A stretch of DNA of 64,000 bases. Origin: Escherichia coli. GTDB lineage: Bacteria > Pseudomonadota > Gammaproteobacteria > Enterobacterales > Enterobacteriaceae. Shown here in pieces: positions 4,204 through 13,454 of this stretch (position 1 is the first letter of the stretch; every line of letters starts with the position of its first letter). The position numbers were made by a program, and so were the translations under genes. The stretch is from the NCBI RefSeq assembly GCF_045037415.1, contig NZ_CP173438.1. One strand, 5' to 3'. The notes under the pieces are model-generated. The model saw nothing but the letters and a program-made list of their open reading frames with translations. It was not told the origin of the DNA and ran no database searches.

Positions 4204-6880
4204 CGAACCCTTACGTCCCGACCCCGATCGTCTGCTGGAACAAACTGCCGCGCCGCATCGGGGGAAGCTGAAAGTTTTCTTCGGTGCCTGCGCAGGCGTC
4301 GGAAAGACCTGGGCGATGCTGGCAGAAGCCCAGCGACTGCGGGCGCAAGGGCTGGATATTGTGGTTGGCGTGGTAGAAACCCACGGGCGGAAAGATACCG
4401 CCGCAATGCTGGAAGGTCTGGCTGTTCTGCCGCTGAAACGCCAGGCGTACCGTGGGCGGCATATCAGCGAGTTTGATCTCGATGCCGCCCTCGCCCGCCG
4501 TCCGGCACTGATCTTAATGGACGAACTGGCGCACAGTAATGCGCCAGGTTCTCGTCATCCTAAACGCTGGCAGGACATCGAAGAGCTGCTGGAAGCAGGC
4601 ATTGATGTTTTCACTACCGTCAACGTTCAGCATCTGGAAAGCCTGAACGATGTGGTCAGTGGCGTAACCGGAATTCAGGTTCGGGAAACCGTGCCCGATC
4701 CTTTTTTCGATGCCGCCGACGACGTAGTACTGGTGGACTTGCCCCCGGACGATCTGCGCCAACGACTGAAAGAAGGCAAAGTCTATATTGCCGGGCAGGC
4801 AGAACGCGCCATTGAGCATTTTTTCCGCAAAGGCAATCTGATCGCCCTGCGCGAGCTGGCGCTACGCCGTACTGCCGATCGCGTAGATGAGCAAATGCGC
4901 GCGTGGCGGGGGCATCCTGGCGAAGAGAAAGTCTGGCACACGCGCGACGCGATCCTTTTATGCATCGGGCATAACACCGGCAGTGAGAAACTGGTCCGCG
5001 CGGCGGCGCGGCTGGCGTCGCGCCTGGGCAGTGTCTGGCACGCGGTGTATGTTGAAACCCCTGCCCTGCATCGCTTACCGGAGAAAAAACGTCGGGCAAT
5101 TCTCAGCGCCTTACGTCTGGCGCAGGAGTTGGGCGCGGAGACGGCAACACTTTCTGATCCAGCGGAAGAAAAAGCAGTAGTGCGTTATGCCCGTGAACAT
5201 AATCTCGGCAAGATTATTCTCGGTCGCCCGGCCTCGCGCCGCTGGTGGCGTCGGGAAACGTTTGCTGACCGGCTGGCGCGCATCGCCCCCGATCTCGATC
5301 AGGTACTGGTCGCGCTTGATGAACCACCCGCCCGCACGATTAATAACGCGCCGGATAGCCGCTCTTTTAAAGACAAGTGGCGGGTACAGATTCAGGGATG
5401 CGTGGTTGCCGCCGCGTTATGCGCCGTTATCACCTTAATTGCCATGCAGTGGCTGATGGCGTTTGATGCCGCCAACCTGGTGATGCTGTATCTGCTTGGC
5501 GTGGTTGTGGTGGCACTATTTTACGGACGCTGGCCTTCGGTGGTTGCGACCGTCATTAATGTGGTGAGTTTCGATCTCTTTTTTATCGCCCCACGCGGCA
5601 CGCTCGCCGTCTCTGATGTGCAATATCTGCTGACCTTCGCGGTGATGTTAACCGTCGGGCTGGTGATCGGGAACCTTACTGCTGGCGTGCGTTATCAGGC
5701 GCGGGTAGCCCGTTACCGCGAACAACGCACACGGCACTTATATGAAATGTCCAAAGCTCTGGCTGTGGGCCGTAGTTCGCAGGATATCGCCGCCACCAGC
5801 GAACAGTTTATTGCCTCCACGTTTCATGCCCGTAGCCAGGTGTTGCTGCCTGATGACAACGGTAAATTGCAGCCTTTAACACATCCGCAAGGAATGACGC
5901 CGTGGGACGATGCCATCGCGCAGTGGAGTTTTGATAAAGGCCTGCCTGCGGGCGCGGGCACCGACACGTTACCCGGTGTACCGTACCAGATTTTGCCGCT
6001 AAAAAGCGGCGAGAAAACCTACGGACTGGTGGTGGTGGAACCGGGGAATCTGCGCCAGTTGATGATCCCGGAACAGCAGCGCCTGCTGGAGACGTTTACG
6101 CTGTTAGTCGCCAATGCCCTTGAGCGACTGACACTGACCGCCAGCGAAGAACAGGCGCGGATGGCAAGCGAACGTGAACAGATCCGCAACGCCCTGCTGG
6201 CGGCGCTTTCGCATGATTTACGCACGCCGCTTACGGTGCTGTTCGGTCAGGCAGAAATCTTAACGCTCGATCTGGCAAGCGAAGGATCGCCCCACGCCCG
6301 CCAGGCCAGCGAGATTCGTCAGCATGTGCTGAACACCACCCGACTGGTGAATAATCTACTGGATATGGCGCGAATTCAGTCCGGCGGCTTTAATTTGAAG
6401 AAAGAGTGGTTAACGCTGGAAGAAGTGGTCGGCAGCGCGCTGCAAATGCTGGAACCGGGTTTATCGTCGCCCATCAATCTTTCTCTGCCAGAGCCGCTGA
6501 CCTTAATCCACGTTGACGGGCCACTCTTTGAACGGGTGCTGATTAACCTGCTGGAGAACGCGGTGAAATATGCGGGGGCGCAGGCCGAAATTGGTATCAA
6601 TGCCCACATCGAGGGCGAAAATCTACAACTGGATGTCTGGGATAACGGCCCCGGTCTTCCACCAGGCCAGGAGCAGACGATATTTGATAAGTTTGCTCGC
6701 GGGAATAAAGAGTCGGCGGTACCGGGTGTAGGGCTTGGGTTGGCAATTTGTCGGGCGATAGTGGATGTACACGGCGGCACCATTACCGCATTCAACCGAC
6801 CGGAAGGTGGTGCCTGTTTTCGTGTTACACTTCCCCAGCAAACAGCCCCTGAACTTGAAGAATTTCATGAGGATATGTGA
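4196..6880 (+). CDS. kdpD: Sensor histidine kinase KdpD
   Basis: 894 aa from ATG at 4196 (ORF begins at TTG 4193); N-terminal Walker-type KdpD domain, C-terminal HisKA/HATPase; start overlaps kdpC stop. Confidence 0.9.
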
Positions 6881-7554
6881 CAAACGTTCTGATTGTTGAA
6901 GATGAACAGGCTATTCGTCGCTTTCTGCGCACGGCGCTGGAGGGCGATGGGATGCGCGTCTTTGAGGCCGAAACGCTGCAACGCGGCTTGCTGGAAGCGG
7001 CTACCCGTAAGCCAGATTTGATTATTCTCGATCTCGGCCTGCCCGATGGTGATGGGATTGAGTTTATCCGCGACCTGCGCCAGTGGAGCGCGGTGCCGGT
7101 GATTGTGCTTTCCGCACGTAGCGAAGAGAGCGACAAAATCGCCGCGCTGGATGCCGGAGCGGATGATTATCTGAGTAAGCCGTTTGGCATTGGCGAATTG
7201 CAGGCCCGTCTGCGCGTCGCTTTACGTCGCCACTCCGCCACCGCCGCGCCCGATCCGCTGGTGAAATTTTCCGATGTTACCGTCGATTTAGCCGCCCGCG
7301 TTATCCATCGGGGCGAGGAAGAGGTGCATCTCACCCCGATTGAGTTCCGCCTGCTGGCAGTGTTGCTCAACAACGCCGGAAAAGTGCTCACCCAGCGCCA
7401 GTTACTCAATCAGGTGTGGGGACCAAACGCGGTCGAACACAGCCACTATTTGCGTATTTATATGGGGCATCTGCGACAAAAACTGGAGCAAGATCCCGCC
7501 CGCCCCCGCCATTTTATTACTGAAACCGGTATTGGGTATCGGTTTATGCCATGA
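6877..7554 (+). CDS. kdpE: Response regulator KdpE (OmpR family)
   Basis: 225 aa; receiver domain plus winged helix; GTG start overlapping kdpD stop. Confidence 0.95.
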   Translation: MTNVLIVEDEQAIRRFLRTALEGDGMRVFEAETLQRGLLEAATRKPDLIILDLGLPDGDGIEFIRDLRQWSAVPVIVLSARSEESDKIAALDAGADDYLSKPFGIGELQARLRVALRRHSATAAPDPLVKFSDVTVDLAARVIHRGEEEVHLTPIEFRLLAVLLNNAGKVLTQRQLLNQVWGPNAVEHSHYLRIYMGHLRQKLEQDPARPRHFITETGIGYRFMP

Positions 7555-7828
7555 ATTATTATTCAATAAATACGCTTAAATAATTATTAATTTATTATTA
7601 AACCTGCCCCGAAAATTATTATTTGGCAGGTTTAATTTCTTAATGAAAATACAACCCACAAAATTGCAACATTTAAACAACAAAACAGCATCTAATATGG
7701 CGCTATTCATCATTAATGATTTATTATTTGGGATATGATCGTTTTTTGTTGATCTTCTTCACAGATTATAGCCATTTCATGGATAGAATAACCCTACCTT
7801 CAACTGACACAGAAAAAGGTAAAGGTAA

Positions 7829-7933
7829 ATGGAAAATAATAACCGCTTAATGCCTCATATAAGGCGGACAACCCATATCATGAAGTTTGCCCATCGTAAT
7901 AGTTTTGACTTTCATTTTTTTAATGCCCGCTAG
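7829..7933 (+). CDS. speFL: speF leader peptide (ornithine-sensing arrest peptide), 34 codons
   Basis: atg at 7829 translates to MENNNRLMPHIRRTTHIMKFAHRNSFDFHFFNAR then TAG; below the ORF-track size cutoff; sits ~300 nt upstream of speF. Confidence 0.8.
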   Translation: MENNNRLMPHIRRTTHIMKFAHRNSFDFHFFNAR

Positions 7934-8242: not shown

Positions 8243-10441
8243 ATGTCAGAATTAAAAATTGCCGTTAGCCGTTCTTGCCCGGATTGTTTTTCCACTCATC
8301 GTGAATGCGTGAATATTGACAAAAGTAATTATATTGACGTTGCCGCCATTATTTTATCAGTCAATGATGTTGAACATGGAAAACTCGATGAAATAGACGC
8401 TACTGGCTATGGCATTCCTGTTTTTATTGCAACGGAAAATGAAGAACGTGTACCAGCAGAATATCTGCCACGTATTTCTGGTGTCTTCGAGCATTGCGAA
8501 TCACGGAAAGAGTTTTATGGACGTCAGTTAGAAACCGCTGCCAGCCATTATGAAACGCAACTGCGCCCGCCCTTCTTCCGCGCACTGGTCGATTATGTCA
8601 ATCAGGGCAATAGCGCTTTTGACTGCCCGGGTCATCAGGGAGGTGAGTTTTTCCGTCGCCATCCGGCAGGCAATCAGTTCGTGGAATATTTTGGCGAAAT
8701 GCTCTTCCGCTCCGACTTGTGTAATGCCGACGTTGCAATGGGCGATCTACTGATTCATGAAGGTGCGCCATGCATTGCACAGCAACATGCGGCTAAAGTG
8801 TTTAATGCCGATAAAACGTACTTTGTTTTAAACGGCACATCCTCCTCCAACAAAGTGGTTTTAAACGCCCTGCTGACACCGGGTGATCTGGTGCTGTTTG
8901 ACCGTAATAACCATAAGTCTAACCACCACGGAGCGTTGCTACAGGCTGGTGCAACACCGGTTTATCTGGAAACAGCACGTAACCCGTATGGTTTTATCGG
9001 TGGCATTGATGCGCACTGCTTCGAAGAAAGTTATCTGCGTGAACTGATTACAGAAGTTGCACCGCAACGGGCAAAAGAGGCGCGTCCGTTCCGCCTCGCT
9101 GTGATTCAGTTAGGCACCTACGACGGTACTATTTATAACGCCCGCCAGGTGGTGGATAAAATCGGCCATCTGTGTGACTACATCCTGTTTGACTCCGCAT
9201 GGGTCGGCTATGAACAGTTTATTCCGATGATGGCGGACTGTTCGCCGCTGCTACTGGAGCTTAATGAGAACGATCCGGGTATTCTGGTTACGCAATCTGT
9301 GCATAAACAACAGGCTGGTTTTTCTCAGACTTCACAAATTCATAAAAAAGACAGCCATATCAAAGGGCAACAGCGTTATGTACCGCACAAACGCATGAAC
9401 AACGCCTTTATGATGCACGCCTCCACCAGCCCGTTCTATCCGCTGTTTGCCGCACTGGATATCAACGCCAAAATGCATGAAGGTGTCAGCGGTCGTAATA
9501 TGTGGATGGATTGTGTGGTTAACGGTATTAATGCCCGCAAATTGATCCTCGATAACTGCCAGCACATTCGCCCGTTCGTTCCTGAACTGGTGGATGGTAA
9601 ACCCTGGCAGTCGTATGAAACAGCGCAAATTGCGGTTGATCTGCGCTTCTTTAAATTTGTACCCGGTGAGCACTGGCATTCTTTTGAAGGCTACGCAGAG
9701 AACCAATACTTTGTCGATCCGTGCAAACTGTTGCTGACAACTCCAGGTATTGATGCACGTAACGGCGAATATGAAGCGTTCGGTGTACCCGCAACGATTC
9801 TTGCTAACTTCCTGCGCGAAAATGGCGTAGTGCCGGAAAAATGCGATCTTAACTCCATCCTCTTCCTGCTGACTCCGGCAGAAGATATGGCCAAACTGCA
9901 GCAACTTGTTGCCCTGCTGGTACGCTTCGAAAAACTACTGGAAGCTGATGCGCCTCTGGCGGAAGTACTGCCTTCCATCTACAAACAGCATGAAGAGCGC
10001 TACGCCGGTTATACCCTGCGTCAGTTGTGCCAGGAAATGCATGATTTGTATGCCCGTCACAACGTGAAACAACTGCAAAAAGAGATGTTCCGTAAGGAAC
10101 ACTTCCCTCGCGTCAGCATGAATCCGCAAGAAGCCAACTACGCCTACTTACGCGGTGAAGTGGAGCTGGTTCGTCTGCCGGATGCAGAAGGCCGTATCGC
10201 TGCCGAAGGTGCGCTTCCTTATCCTCCGGGTGTGCTGTGTGTTGTTCCTGGTGAAATCTGGGGTGGTGCTGTTCTGCGTTACTTCAGCGCTCTGGAAGAA
10301 GGCATCAACCTGCTGCCAGGTTTTGCACCGGAGCTGCAGGGTGTCTATATCGAAGAACATGATGGTCGTAAGCAAGTTTGGTGCTATGTCATCAAGCCTC
10401 GTGATGCGCAAAGCGCCCTGTTGAAAGGGGAAAAATTATGA
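8243..10441 (+). CDS. speF: Inducible ornithine decarboxylase
   Basis: ORF 8234..10441; second in-frame ATG at 8243 gives 732 aa, the length I recall for SpeF; PLP-dependent fold I decarboxylase; followed by potE. Confidence 0.9.
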   Translation: MSELKIAVSRSCPDCFSTHRECVNIDKSNYIDVAAIILSVNDVEHGKLDEIDATGYGIPVFIATENEERVPAEYLPRISGVFEHCESRKEFYGRQLETAASHYETQLRPPFFRALVDYVNQGNSAFDCPGHQGGEFFRRHPAGNQFVEYFGEMLFRSDLCNADVAMGDLLIHEGAPCIAQQHAAKVFNADKTYFVLNGTSSSNKVVLNALLTPGDLVLFDRNNHKSNHHGALLQAGATPVYLETARNPYGFIGGIDAHCFEESYLRELITEVAPQRAKEARPFRLAVIQLGTYDGTIYNARQVVDKIGHLCDYILFDSAWVGYEQFIPMMADCSPLLLELNENDPGILVTQSVHKQQAGFSQTSQIHKKDSHIKGQQRYVPHKRMNNAFMMHASTSPFYPLFAALDINAKMHEGVSGRNMWMDCVVNGINARKLILDNCQHIRPFVPELVDGKPWQSYETAQIAVDLRFFKFVPGEHWHSFEGYAENQYFVDPCKLLLTTPGIDARNGEYEAFGVPATILANFLRENGVVPEKCDLNSILFLLTPAEDMAKLQQLVALLVRFEKLLEADAPLAEVLPSIYKQHEERYAGYTLRQLCQEMHDLYARHNVKQLQKEMFRKEHFPRVSMNPQEANYAYLRGEVELVRLPDAEGRIAAEGALPYPPGVLCVVPGEIWGGAVLRYFSALEEGINLLPGFAPELQGVYIEEHDGRKQVWCYVIKPRDAQSALLKGEKL

Positions 10442-11757
10442 GTCAGGCGAAATCGAACAAAATGGGTGTCGTTCAGTTAACCATACTGACGATGGTCAAC
10501 ATGATGGGCTCCGGTATCATCATGCTGCCGACAAAGCTTGCCGAAGTCGGGACAATCTCAATTATCTCCTGGCTGGTGACAGCCGTAGGCTCAATGGCAC
10601 TGGCATGGGCATTCGCAAAATGCGGTATGTTCAGCCGTAAATCAGGAGGTATGGGCGGTTATGCCGAGTATGCTTTCGGTAAATCCGGTAACTTTATGGC
10701 GAACTATACCTACGGCGTCTCGCTGCTGATTGCTAACGTCGCGATTGCTATTTCGGCGGTTGGTTACGGCACCGAACTGCTCGGCGCGAGTTTGTCGCCA
10801 GTGCAGATTGGTCTTGCGACCATCGGGGTGCTGTGGATTTGTACCGTGGCTAACTTTGGTGGTGCGCGCATTACCGGGCAAATCAGTAGCATTACCGTGT
10901 GGGGGGTCATTATTCCGGTGGTAGGCCTGTGCATTATCGGCTGGTTCTGGTTTAGCCCGACGCTTTACGTTGATTCCTGGAATCCGCATCATGCACCCTT
11001 CTTCAGTGCGGTAGGTTCTTCCATCGCTATGACGCTGTGGGCTTTTCTTGGTCTGGAGTCTGCGTGTGCGAATACTGATGTAGTGGAAAACCCGGAACGT
11101 AATGTGCCAATCGCGGTACTCGGCGGTACGTTAGGTGCGGCGGTGATTTATATCGTCTCCACCAACGTGATTGCCGGGATTGTGCCAAATATGGAGCTGG
11201 CAAATTCAACGGCACCATTTGGTCTGGCCTTCGCGCAGATGTTCACGCCGGAAGTGGGTAAAGTCATTATGGCGCTGATGGTGATGTCCTGCTGCGGTTC
11301 GCTGCTTGGCTGGCAGTTCACCATTGCCCAGGTGTTTAAATCTTCATCTGATGAAGGCTACTTCCCTAAAATTTTCTCCCGTGTAACCAAAGTGGATGCA
11401 CCGGTGCAGGGAATGTTGACCATTGTGATTATCCAGAGCGGGTTGGCGCTGATGACGATTAGCCCGTCGCTAAACAGTCAGTTCAACGTGCTGGTTAACC
11501 TGGCCGTGGTGACTAATATCATTCCGTATATTCTGTCAATGGCGGCATTAGTCATTATTCAGAAGGTCGCTAATGTGCCCCCCTCAAAAGCGAAAGTTGC
11601 AAACTTTGTTGCTTTTGTTGGCGCGATGTACAGCTTTTATGCGCTGTACTCATCCGGGGAAGAAGCCATGCTATACGGTTCCATCGTGACCTTCCTCGGT
11701 TGGACACTGTATGGTCTGGTCTCACCACGCTTTGAACTGAAAAATAAACACGGTTAA
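10438..11757 (+). CDS. potE: Putrescine-ornithine antiporter
   Basis: 439 aa APC-family permease; start overlaps speF stop (ATGA). Confidence 0.95.
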   Translation: MSQAKSNKMGVVQLTILTMVNMMGSGIIMLPTKLAEVGTISIISWLVTAVGSMALAWAFAKCGMFSRKSGGMGGYAEYAFGKSGNFMANYTYGVSLLIANVAIAISAVGYGTELLGASLSPVQIGLATIGVLWICTVANFGGARITGQISSITVWGVIIPVVGLCIIGWFWFSPTLYVDSWNPHHAPFFSAVGSSIAMTLWAFLGLESACANTDVVENPERNVPIAVLGGTLGAAVIYIVSTNVIAGIVPNMELANSTAPFGLAFAQMFTPEVGKVIMALMVMSCCGSLLGWQFTIAQVFKSSSDEGYFPKIFSRVTKVDAPVQGMLTIVIIQSGLALMTISPSLNSQFNVLVNLAVVTNIIPYILSMAALVIIQKVANVPPSKAKVANFVAFVGAMYSFYALYSSGEEAMLYGSIVTFLGWTLYGLVSPRFELKNKHG

Positions 11758-11770
11758 TTAAGCAAAGCAA

Positions 11771-11800
11771 AAAAGGGCGATCTTCCGACCGCCCTTTTTC
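11771..11800. terminator. Bidirectional intrinsic terminator between potE and pgm
   Basis: A-run, stem gggcg...cgccc, then T-run (aaaagggcgatcttccgaccgcccttttt). Confidence 0.6.
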
Positions 11801-11813
11801 TTATTTGATATGT

Positions 11814-13454
11814 TTACGCGTTTTTCAGAACTTCGCTAACAATTTCAACCGCTTCTTTCTCAATCTGCTTGCGATGTTCTTCACCAAGGAAGCTTTCGCA
11901 GTAGATCTTATATGCGTCTTCCGTGCCTGACGGACGCGCGGCGAACCAGCCGTTGTCAGTCATCACTTTCAGACCGCCGATAGAAGCGCCATTACCCGGT
12001 GCCGCCGTCAGACGCGCGGTGATCGGGTCACCTGCCAGGGTGCTGGCGCTCACCATTTCCGGAGACAGCTTAGACAACGCCGCTTTTTGTGCGGAAGTCG
12101 CTGCTGCCTGCAAACGGTTATAGCTCGGCGCACCAAAGCGTTTTGCCAGTTCGTTATAGTGTTCCTGCGGGTTCTTACCGGTGACAGCGGTGATTTCCGC
12201 CGCCAGCAGACACATAATGATGCCGTCTTTATCGGTGGACCACGGCGTGCCGTCGAAACGCAGGAAGGAAGCCCCTGCGCTCTCTTCGCCGCCAAAGCCG
12301 AAGCTGCCGTCGAACAGACCATCAACAAACCATTTGAAACCTACCGGGACTTCTACCAGCTTACGGCCCAAGTCATTGACCACACGGTCGATCATCGCAG
12401 ATGAAACCAGCGTTTTACCGACAGCAACATCTTTGCCCCACTGCGGACGATGCTGGAACAGGTAATTGATCGCCACCGCCAGGTAGTGGTTCGGATTCAT
12501 CAAACCTGCCGGAGTGACGATACCGTGACGGTCATAATCCGGGTCGTTAGCAAACGCCAGATCGAACTTATCACGCAGTGCCAGCAGGCCCGCCATCGCA
12601 CACTCGGAGGAGCAGTCCATACGGATCGCGCCGTCTTTATCAAGGTGCATAAAGCGGAAGGTTTGATCGACCTGATCGTTAACAATAGTCAGGTTGAGGT
12701 TGTAATACTCGCCAATACGCTTCCAGTATTCGATACCGGAACCGCCCAGCGGATCAACGCCAAGCGTCAGGCCCGCTTTCTGAATCGCCGCCATATCAAC
12801 GATATCGGCCAGCCCTTCCACAAACGGCTGCACCAGATCCTGCTCTTTCACATGACCGGATGCCATCGCTTCGTCGAGGGAGATACGCTTCACGCCTTTC
12901 AGGCCATCAGCCAGCAGTGCGTTTGCTCTGTCTTCCACCACTTTAGTGACGTTGGTATCAGCCGGGCCACCATTTGGCGGATTGTACTTGATACCACCAT
13001 CTTCCGGCGGGTTATGGGACGGTGTAATCACGATACCGTCTGCCAGCGGGCCACCTTTTTTATTGTGAACCAGAATGGCATTGGAAATGGCAGGTGTCGG
13101 AGTGAAGCCATTGTTTTCCTGCACAATGACATCAACGCCGTTCGCTGCCAGCACTTCCAGTACGGAAATGAACGCAGGCTCGGACAGGGCGTGAGTATCT
13201 TTACCCACATAGCAAGGGCCAGTGATGCCGTTTTTCGCACGTTCTTCAGCAATTGCCTGAGCGATCGCCAGAATGTGCGGCTCGTTAAAGCTGTGGCGCG
13301 CTGCACTGCCACGGTGACCGGAAGTACCGAATTTCACCGCGTGCTCCGCATTCCCTGCTTCTGGTTTCAGTACATAATATTGCGCCGTCAGTTGGGCGAC
13401 GTTAATCAAATCACTCTGTTGTGCAGGTTGGCCTGCACGATTGTGGATTGCCAT
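11814..13454 (-). CDS. pgm: Phosphoglucomutase
   Basis: ORF 11814..13505 trimmed to internal ATG giving [10 protein letters not shown]..., 546 aa; phosphohexomutase motifs (TSGHRG). Confidence 0.9.

Follow-up and report, generated by a model that had tools for sequence, protein, structure and literature searches.

A compact potE-pgm junction with a predicted shared terminator is a common structural allele of Escherichia coli

The convergent potE-pgm junction and its hairpin

The window analyzed here is one whole 64-kb stretch of Escherichia coli DNA. Within it, the speFL-speF-potE operon and pgm run toward each other, and their last genes are separated by a short gap that holds a single hairpin. 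Throughout, hp1 denotes the hairpin directly after pgm and hp2 the hairpin directly after potE. The features of the locus, in window positions, are as follows.

6877-7554, + strand: kdpE, a context gene whose 3' end (7411-7549) resembles ybfI of K-12
7829-7933, + strand: speFL leader peptide, translation MENNNRLMPHIRRTTHIMKFAHRNSFDFHFFNAR, annotated speFL in strain SK1144
8243-10441, + strand: speF, inducible ornithine decarboxylase, a context gene
10438-11757, + strand: potE, putrescine-ornithine antiporter, a 439-aa open reading frame (ORF) and the last gene of the speFL-speF-potE operon
11755-11757, + strand: potE stop codon, TAA
11758-11813, no strand: convergent potE/pgm intergenic junction, uninterrupted in about 3,194 of the complete E. 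coli genomes (5,426 in all)
11769-11781, - strand: 13-nt arm ATCGCCCTTTTTT, found twice in K-12, at each end of a 1,692-bp extra segment
11769-11800, no strand: hairpin of the hp1 type, predicted bidirectional intrinsic terminator, with its G+C core at 11775-11794
11814-11816, - strand: pgm stop codon (TTA on the + strand, the reverse complement of TAA)
11814-13454, - strand: pgm, phosphoglucomutase, TIGR01132 equivalog at 1074 bits versus a cutoff of 778

PotE matched the NCBIfam equivalogs PRK10655 and TIGR04299 at 857 and 851 bits (857 versus a cutoff of 409), and amino acid identity to K-12 is 100% for PotE and 99.8% for Pgm. Strain SK1144, in which the genes are annotated potE and pgm, is 100% identical to the window over the 1,056 bp tested. 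The positions of the two stop codons confirm the gap of exactly 56 bp (11758-11813) described in the first-pass annotation. This gap contains no REP/BIME repeats, and ybfP and ybfG sequence is absent from the entire 64-kb window. Upstream in the operon, a 44-codon ORF at about 7716-7850 of the window (SK1144 locus 2459-2593) overlaps the start of speFL; it is named "hypothetical protein" in SK1144 and "TonB-dependent receptor" in R32_14_1F and N96 (locus L090, 10732-10863) and is probably an annotation artifact.

Bidirectional intrinsic terminators between convergent bacterial genes have been described for E. coli. Like these known terminators, the window has a G+C-rich hairpin bordered by A and T runs where two convergent genes lie close together, and the stem-loop, the U-run on both strands, and the location between convergent genes that characterize a bidirectional intrinsic (Rho-independent) terminator are all present. 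The hairpin lies 11 nt past the potE stop codon and 13 nt past the pgm stop codon, and its G+C core is bordered by A6 at one end and by T5-6 at the opposite end. On the - strand (pgm sense) it has 14 pairs and was called as a terminator by a terminator scan, and folds of 76 nt were more stable than shuffled sequences on both strands (z = -3.2 for the + strand and z = -4.0 for the - strand). Read in the pgm sense, the hairpin by itself has an energy of -21.4 kcal/mol and is followed by the U-run UUUUUUGCUUUGCUU. Read in the potE sense, its energy is -15.3 kcal/mol; here a G.U pair turns into an A.C mismatch and the U-run after the stem (UUUUUCUUAUUU) is interrupted. In the region 11300-12300, Rfam families gave no more than sub-threshold, terminator-like matches. 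The earlier proposal that potE and pgm share one bidirectional terminator fits the single predicted hairpin and its U-runs on both strands, and a two-way terminator at 11769-11800 is a well-founded prediction, in which the convergent pgm and potE transcripts would end at one shared hairpin. The usual experimental strain, K-12, lacks the compact junction. The center of the hairpin, GGTCGGAAGATC in the pgm sense, recurs in the pgm-side hairpin of every other E. coli allele that was compared.

Anatomy of the K-12 interval

The first-pass annotation had placed ybfP and ybfG/ybfH material between pgm and potE in K-12, and the MG1655 annotation, where these genes now appear as ybfG and ybfI, agrees. 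In K-12 MG1655 (NC_000913.3, 715,199-716,945), the same two stop codons are separated by 1,747 bp that contain ybfP, a ybfG pseudogene (the old ybfG plus ybfH), and a ybfI pseudogene. Comparison with K-12, the check put forward in the first-pass annotation, thus gave 1,747 bp and not the same 56-bp junction that would have refuted the observation. The flanking genes, their orientation, and the hairpin just after pgm are alike in the window and in MG1655, with nucleotide identities of 98.4% for potE, 97.6% for pgm, and 92.4% for speF; unlike the window, K-12 adds BIME repeats, ybfP, ybfG, ybfI, and a second hairpin, hp2, at potE.

The window junction gave one blastn alignment with each end of the K-12 interval, with an overlap of 13 nt between them. 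Relative to the window, K-12 carries 1,692 bp of extra DNA, and the difference is as clean as had been supposed, being nucleotide-exact in the blastn alignment. A repeat search of the K-12 interval returned hp1 (AAAGGGCGGTCGCAAGATCGCCCTTTTTTAC) and hp2 (AAAGGGCGATCATTCAATCGCCCTTTTTTAC) as a 31-nt direct repeat with 81% identity, a spacing of 1692 bp, and an identical 13-nt arm, together with a second direct repeat of 43 nt (a REP end plus a short sequence, X) at a spacing of 1514 bp. The order in K-12 is pgm, hp1, BIME, X1, ybfP, ybfG, ybfI, REP fragment, X2, hp2, potE. Positions 49 to 202 of the block match at least 40 places per genome, which identifies that part as REP/BIME. The hairpin of the window consists of the hp1 center and left flank followed by the sequence that in K-12 is found beyond hp2, and it differs from the pgm-side hairpin of K-12 by 1 loop difference.

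This arrangement, with repeats at both ends of the long allele and one copy kept in the window, is what a deletion between direct repeats would leave. It resembles known cases in which enterobacterial DNA was deleted or duplicated between REP/BIME elements or other short direct repeats, in which repeats stand at the ends and the short allele keeps one, and BIME copies lie inside the variable segment of the long allele. Unlike in REP-mediated events of enterobacterial intergenic regions, however, the repeats here are two diverged copies of a terminator hairpin and not REP units. One reading of the junction is that the lineage of this strain recently lost exactly the 1,692 bp of a K-12-type block through recombination or replication slippage between the two hairpins. 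The 31-nt repeats of K-12, with their identical 13-nt arm and the one copy left in the window, speak for it; the census and haplotype data that bear on it are given below.

The block itself is composite. ybfP is an orphan gene for a lipoprotein, and ybfG is a DUF2625/PRK11408 gene that is intact in some strains. By tblastn, ybfI of K-12 (locus coordinates 6722-6871) corresponds to KdpE residues 177 to 225 including the stop codon, i.e., the last 49 codons. It has about 91% nucleotide identity to kdpE, and in blastn the insert matches window positions 7411-7549 at 91.4% over 139 nt; this kdpE 3' end is the sole part of the window that resembles the extra block of K-12. In K-12, ybfI sits 4 kb from the intact kdpE on the opposite side of speF-potE, so that kdpE 3'-end repeats bracket speF-potE. 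Since ybfI is a kdpE 3' fragment, the K-12 block is a mosaic. Judged from its anatomy, the block would most simply be an allele with the order pgm, ybfP, ybfG, kdpE joined to an allele with the order REP, X, hp2, potE, speF, speFL, kdpE, the join lying inside kdpE.

The repeats that flank the block are the terminator hairpins and the REP-X sequence, and no transposase or integrase is annotated in it, so the block does not have the makeup of a mobile element or genomic island. A mobile-element origin was ruled out on these grounds, there being no mobility gene and IS copies in individual strains only. The IS copies seen in the K-12-type block or BIME region are IS1 (one MG1655 stock and HS), IS1414 (LR-29-1), and IS1397 (strain B1).

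Distribution of the alleles in E. coli and related species

The census covered 5,426 complete E. coli genomes, which fell into the following classes.

Compact, with pgm and potE ends contiguous: 3,196 of 5,426, including 2 intermediates; 3,163 by a shorter query
Two-hairpin intermediate (pgm, hp1, BIME, X, hp2, potE): 2 genomes, R32_14_1F and N96, with a gap of 223-225 bp
K-12-type block: 1,851 of 5,426 (34%), of which 1,656 match K-12 at 99% identity or more
ybfP directly next to kdpE, without speF-potE: 246 genomes, e.g., eco-241
pgm-kdpE junction, with or without ybfP: 348 genomes (about 6%), speFL-speF-potE being absent altogether
Unclassified alleles: about 31 of 5,426

Without the intermediates, in which the two hairpins are set apart by REP/BIME repeats, the compact junction accounts for about 3,194 genomes (59%) and is thus the majority allele. 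Going by strain name, the compact form is found in SE15, E2348/69, ST131 isolates, and O157:H7 and the K-12 form in K-12, B/BL21, and C. The 348 pgm-kdpE junctions, set against the 246 with ybfP, leave about 102 genomes that lack both ybfP and speF-potE (e.g., TB06051). HS has the same pieces as eco-241 plus an IS1 copy.

An assembly or annotation artifact was rejected, as identical or near-identical 56-bp junctions are present in thousands of independently finished genomes. In particular, a collapsed repeat that merely made the gap look short was considered because REP/BIME sequence sits at this site in other strains; given that the 56-bp junction recurs across those thousands of assemblies, its probability is close to nil.

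The same numbers weigh on a recent deletion. The compact form is not peculiar to this strain but occurs in 59% of the genomes, including the strains named above, and in many other genera. Moreover, 1,656 genomes share the block that would have been lost at 99% identity or more, as if it had expanded recently. In a pan-genome study, ybfP was among the genes enriched in phylogroup A (PMC5422975), which likewise argues against such a loss. A second study lists ybfP as an accessory gene whose frequency differs between mastitis and commensal strains (PMC11390585). From a few strain names and the one paper (PMC5422975), the K-12-type block appears to belong mainly to phylogroup A.

For comparison outside E. 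coli, a Pgm scan provided one genome per species from 80 other Enterobacteriaceae species, and reference proteins were placed on each locus; E. fergusonii, E. marmotae, E. ruysiae, and E. whittamii are not among these outgroup loci. The next gene after pgm is as follows.

potE, convergent: 36 of 80 species
A potE 3' remnant: 1 of 80 (Klebsiella indica)
kdpE: 26 of 80
A speF-like gene without potE: 3 of 80
Something else or the contig end: 14 of 80

Neither ybfP nor ybfG was found at this locus in any of the 80 species. The pgm-potE gap is about 110 bp or less in 19 species, usually with one evident hairpin followed by T-runs. With 36 of the 80 outgroups convergent, often with a single hairpin in 40-110 bp, and none with ybfP or ybfG, the compact architecture appears to be ancestral and the K-12 block an E. 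coli-specific gain. The first-pass annotation had left open whether the strain was ancestral-compact or had undergone a clean deletion; the evidence favors a compact form that is both ancestral and the E. coli majority, with the K-12 block gained within E. coli.

The closest parallel is Escherichia albertii NBRC 107761. As in the window, pgm and potE converge there on a compact gap, of about 57 bp in this case, in which a symmetric A6-stem-T6 hairpin is the sole one; the potE-side flank is homologous to that of the window. Its hairpin folds equally well on both strands (-22.5 and -24.1 kcal/mol). The center, however, is of the hp2 type, GATCATTCGATC, versus the hp1 type, GGTCGGAAGATC, in the window.

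Several outgroup loci show further variation. In Salmonella enterica subsp. diarizonae, the pgm-potE gap holds a Pyridox_ox_2 (PNPOx-like) gene (locus 10771-11274), and in Kluyvera it holds a Pyridox_ox_2 gene and a DUF1294 membrane protein gene (locus 10817-11149 and 11182-11658). With other small genes at the same spot in these two genera, the site evidently tolerates insertions. Klebsiella indica, which lacks speF-potE, retains a potE 3' remnant between pgm and kdpE (locus 10736-10849; residues 402 to 439, 68% identity), so absence of the operon can come from deletion. In Pseudocitrobacter spp. and "Escherichia sp. ESNIH1," a speF-like decarboxylase gene follows pgm directly, with no potE between them; its product has about 81% amino acid identity, aligned to residue 718 of 732.

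A search for the source of ybfP beyond E. coli led back to E. coli. No Pfam or NCBIfam family was found for YbfP. Its homologs form 27 clusters in a collection of 5.8 billion proteins; all clusters with a named source are from E. coli, and none of the others falls below 63% identity. A donor in another species was therefore rejected, the protein search having given E. coli sequences only. The most divergent match (P0017, 63% identity) turned out to owe its distance to a frameshifted allele, the surrounding DNA being ordinary E. coli in the order pgm-ybfP-kdpE, and another match (P0021) comes from a low-quality metagenome contig of the K-12 type.

Origin of the compact hairpin and of the K-12 allele

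The distribution of the two hairpin types bears on how the compact junction of E. coli arose. All 9 of the compact alleles sampled have the hp1 center, and they fall into two haplotypes, one with loop GGAA and flank GCTTTGCTTAATT, as in the window, and one with loop GCAA and flank ACTTTGCTTTTTT. At potE, hp2 is found in every noncompact potE allele (K-12, 500111, strain B1, R32_14_1F, N96, E69, and E. albertii), and at pgm, hp1 is found in every E. coli or E69 allele, including those without speF-potE. E69 is labeled E. coli but is a divergent representative of a separate species, with a pgm that has 95-96% identity to those E. coli alleles with which it was compared. A compact allele with the hp2 center was sought in the 5,426 E. 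coli genomes and was found in none, the best match, at 97.3%, showing all 6 engineered mismatches and no others; JGI metagenomes gave 0 matches as well.

Over the last 400 nt of potE, 8 of the 9 compact alleles are 97.8-100% identical to one another, and the ninth, Z1323HEC0355, is a mosaic at 94-96%. Over the same 400 nt, alleles that bear hp2 differ among themselves by up to 14%. Comparison of these sequences suggests that hp2 is probably the older hairpin on the potE side and that the compact hp1 junction arose when hp1 recombined with hp2 by way of the arm that they have in common. The presence of hp2 at potE in all noncompact alleles and in two outgroup lineages favors such a fusion, yet at the family level the compact form is ancestral, and the K-12 allele nests among the compact ones. 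The DNA between the hairpins at the time of fusion could have been BIME plus X only (about 168 bp) or the whole K-12-type block (1,692 bp).

A different account would make the hairpin of the window the never-interrupted descendant of the ancestral terminator, with the hp2 of the K-12, two-hairpin, and E69 alleles having arrived on speF-potE DNA whose source was an E. albertii-like lineage. A single hairpin in a short gap is indeed what E. albertii has, as do at least 19 other species, and the E. albertii pgm-hairpin spacer resembles, by eye, the left flank of hp1. The speF-potE genes of E69 are about 88-89% identical to all E. coli alleles, versus 95-97% for pgm and kdpD, which suggests import. 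This account requires, however, that the compact center change at 5-6 of 12 positions into exactly the post-pgm sequence of all noncompact alleles and that hp2 move onto E. coli-type potE alleles (R32_14_1F, N96, 500111, and K-12) that are 91-98% identical to compact ones, and an E. coli compact allele with the hp2 center was not found as an intermediate. We consider such an uninterrupted descent unlikely, though worth keeping in view.

The haplotypes divide on a recent deletion. The compact haplotype of FDAARGOS_1059, A28, C012, and MS20649 shares the hp1 loop and left flank of K-12 and is 98.2% identical to K-12 over the 400 nt of the potE 3' end, as a deletion from a K-12-type allele would have it. 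The haplotype of the window, with loop GGAA and flank GCTTTGCTTAATT, is unlike that of K-12 on both sides. Taken with the census, this makes a recent loss of the block in the lineage of this strain quite improbable.

In a tree of the 400-nt potE 3' end, the long allele of K-12 nests inside the compact alleles; the tree bears on polarity but is weakened by the mosaic nature of the region, in which Z1323HEC0355, for one, is a recombinant. With the K-12 allele nested in this way, either deletions were repeated or the block was moved by homologous recombination. The operon as a whole is patchy too. Strain 500111 has a potE with 93% identity to that of the window but a speF with 96% identity to that of K-12; this differing pattern, together with the 92.4% for speF and 98.4% for potE between the window and K-12, marks the operon as a recombination mosaic. 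By sequence comparison, the speF-potE alleles are unusually deep for E. coli. A plasmid match to potE (NZ_CP182310.1, E. coli EC100) was set aside as a pseudogene fragment with no bearing on the junction. This potE 3' fragment of 360 bp (5996-6355 of the retrieved locus), 89.7% identical to the window, lies between IS26 copies on a 78-kb plasmid and adjoins a class 1 integron with dfrA14.

In the sequence of events that we favor, the compact hairpin, with an hp1 body and an hp2-side flank, would be an earlier fusion product that formed before the compact alleles diversified, and homologous recombination would later have brought the K-12-type block into the lineage of K-12, whose background was of the compact type. 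Given the identical 13-nt arm in hp1 and hp2, long and short alleles can interconvert cleanly, and they may do so by recombination or slippage between the two hairpins. We put forward, tentatively and at somewhat less than even odds, a broader model in which the compact terminator is a chimera of two diverged copies (hp1 and hp2) of an ancestral pgm/potE terminator. In this model, the pgm-kdpE interval would be an old multiallelic hot spot with five gene architectures (set by which of speF-potE, ybfP, and ybfG are present) and with speF alleles differing by up to 8%, shuffled by homologous recombination, with the duplicated terminators serving as portable crossover sites. The overall conclusion stands on firmer ground: the 56-bp junction is, with high probability, a genuine common allele with the ancestral convergent single-hairpin architecture, and the K-12 block is an E. 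coli-specific mosaic.

The junction is an ordinary strain difference, a common structural allele visible in public annotations, and the presence or absence of ybfP in E. coli is already on record in the literature (PMC5422975, PMC11390585). Mildly new are the division of the pgm-kdpE interval into five alleles, the derivation of ybfI from kdpE, and the probable chimeric nature of the shared terminator. The locus may interest work on indel mechanisms or on the design of bidirectional terminators; it has no bearing on an open question and in that sense matters little. For the biology of E. coli, it means that K-12 is not typical of the species at pgm-potE and that ybfP, ybfG, and ybfI, as accessory or decaying material, are restricted to certain lineages. 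The K-12-type allele could be recognized simply by the presence of ybfP, and two copies of a terminator hairpin permit the scar-free gain or loss of a gene block.
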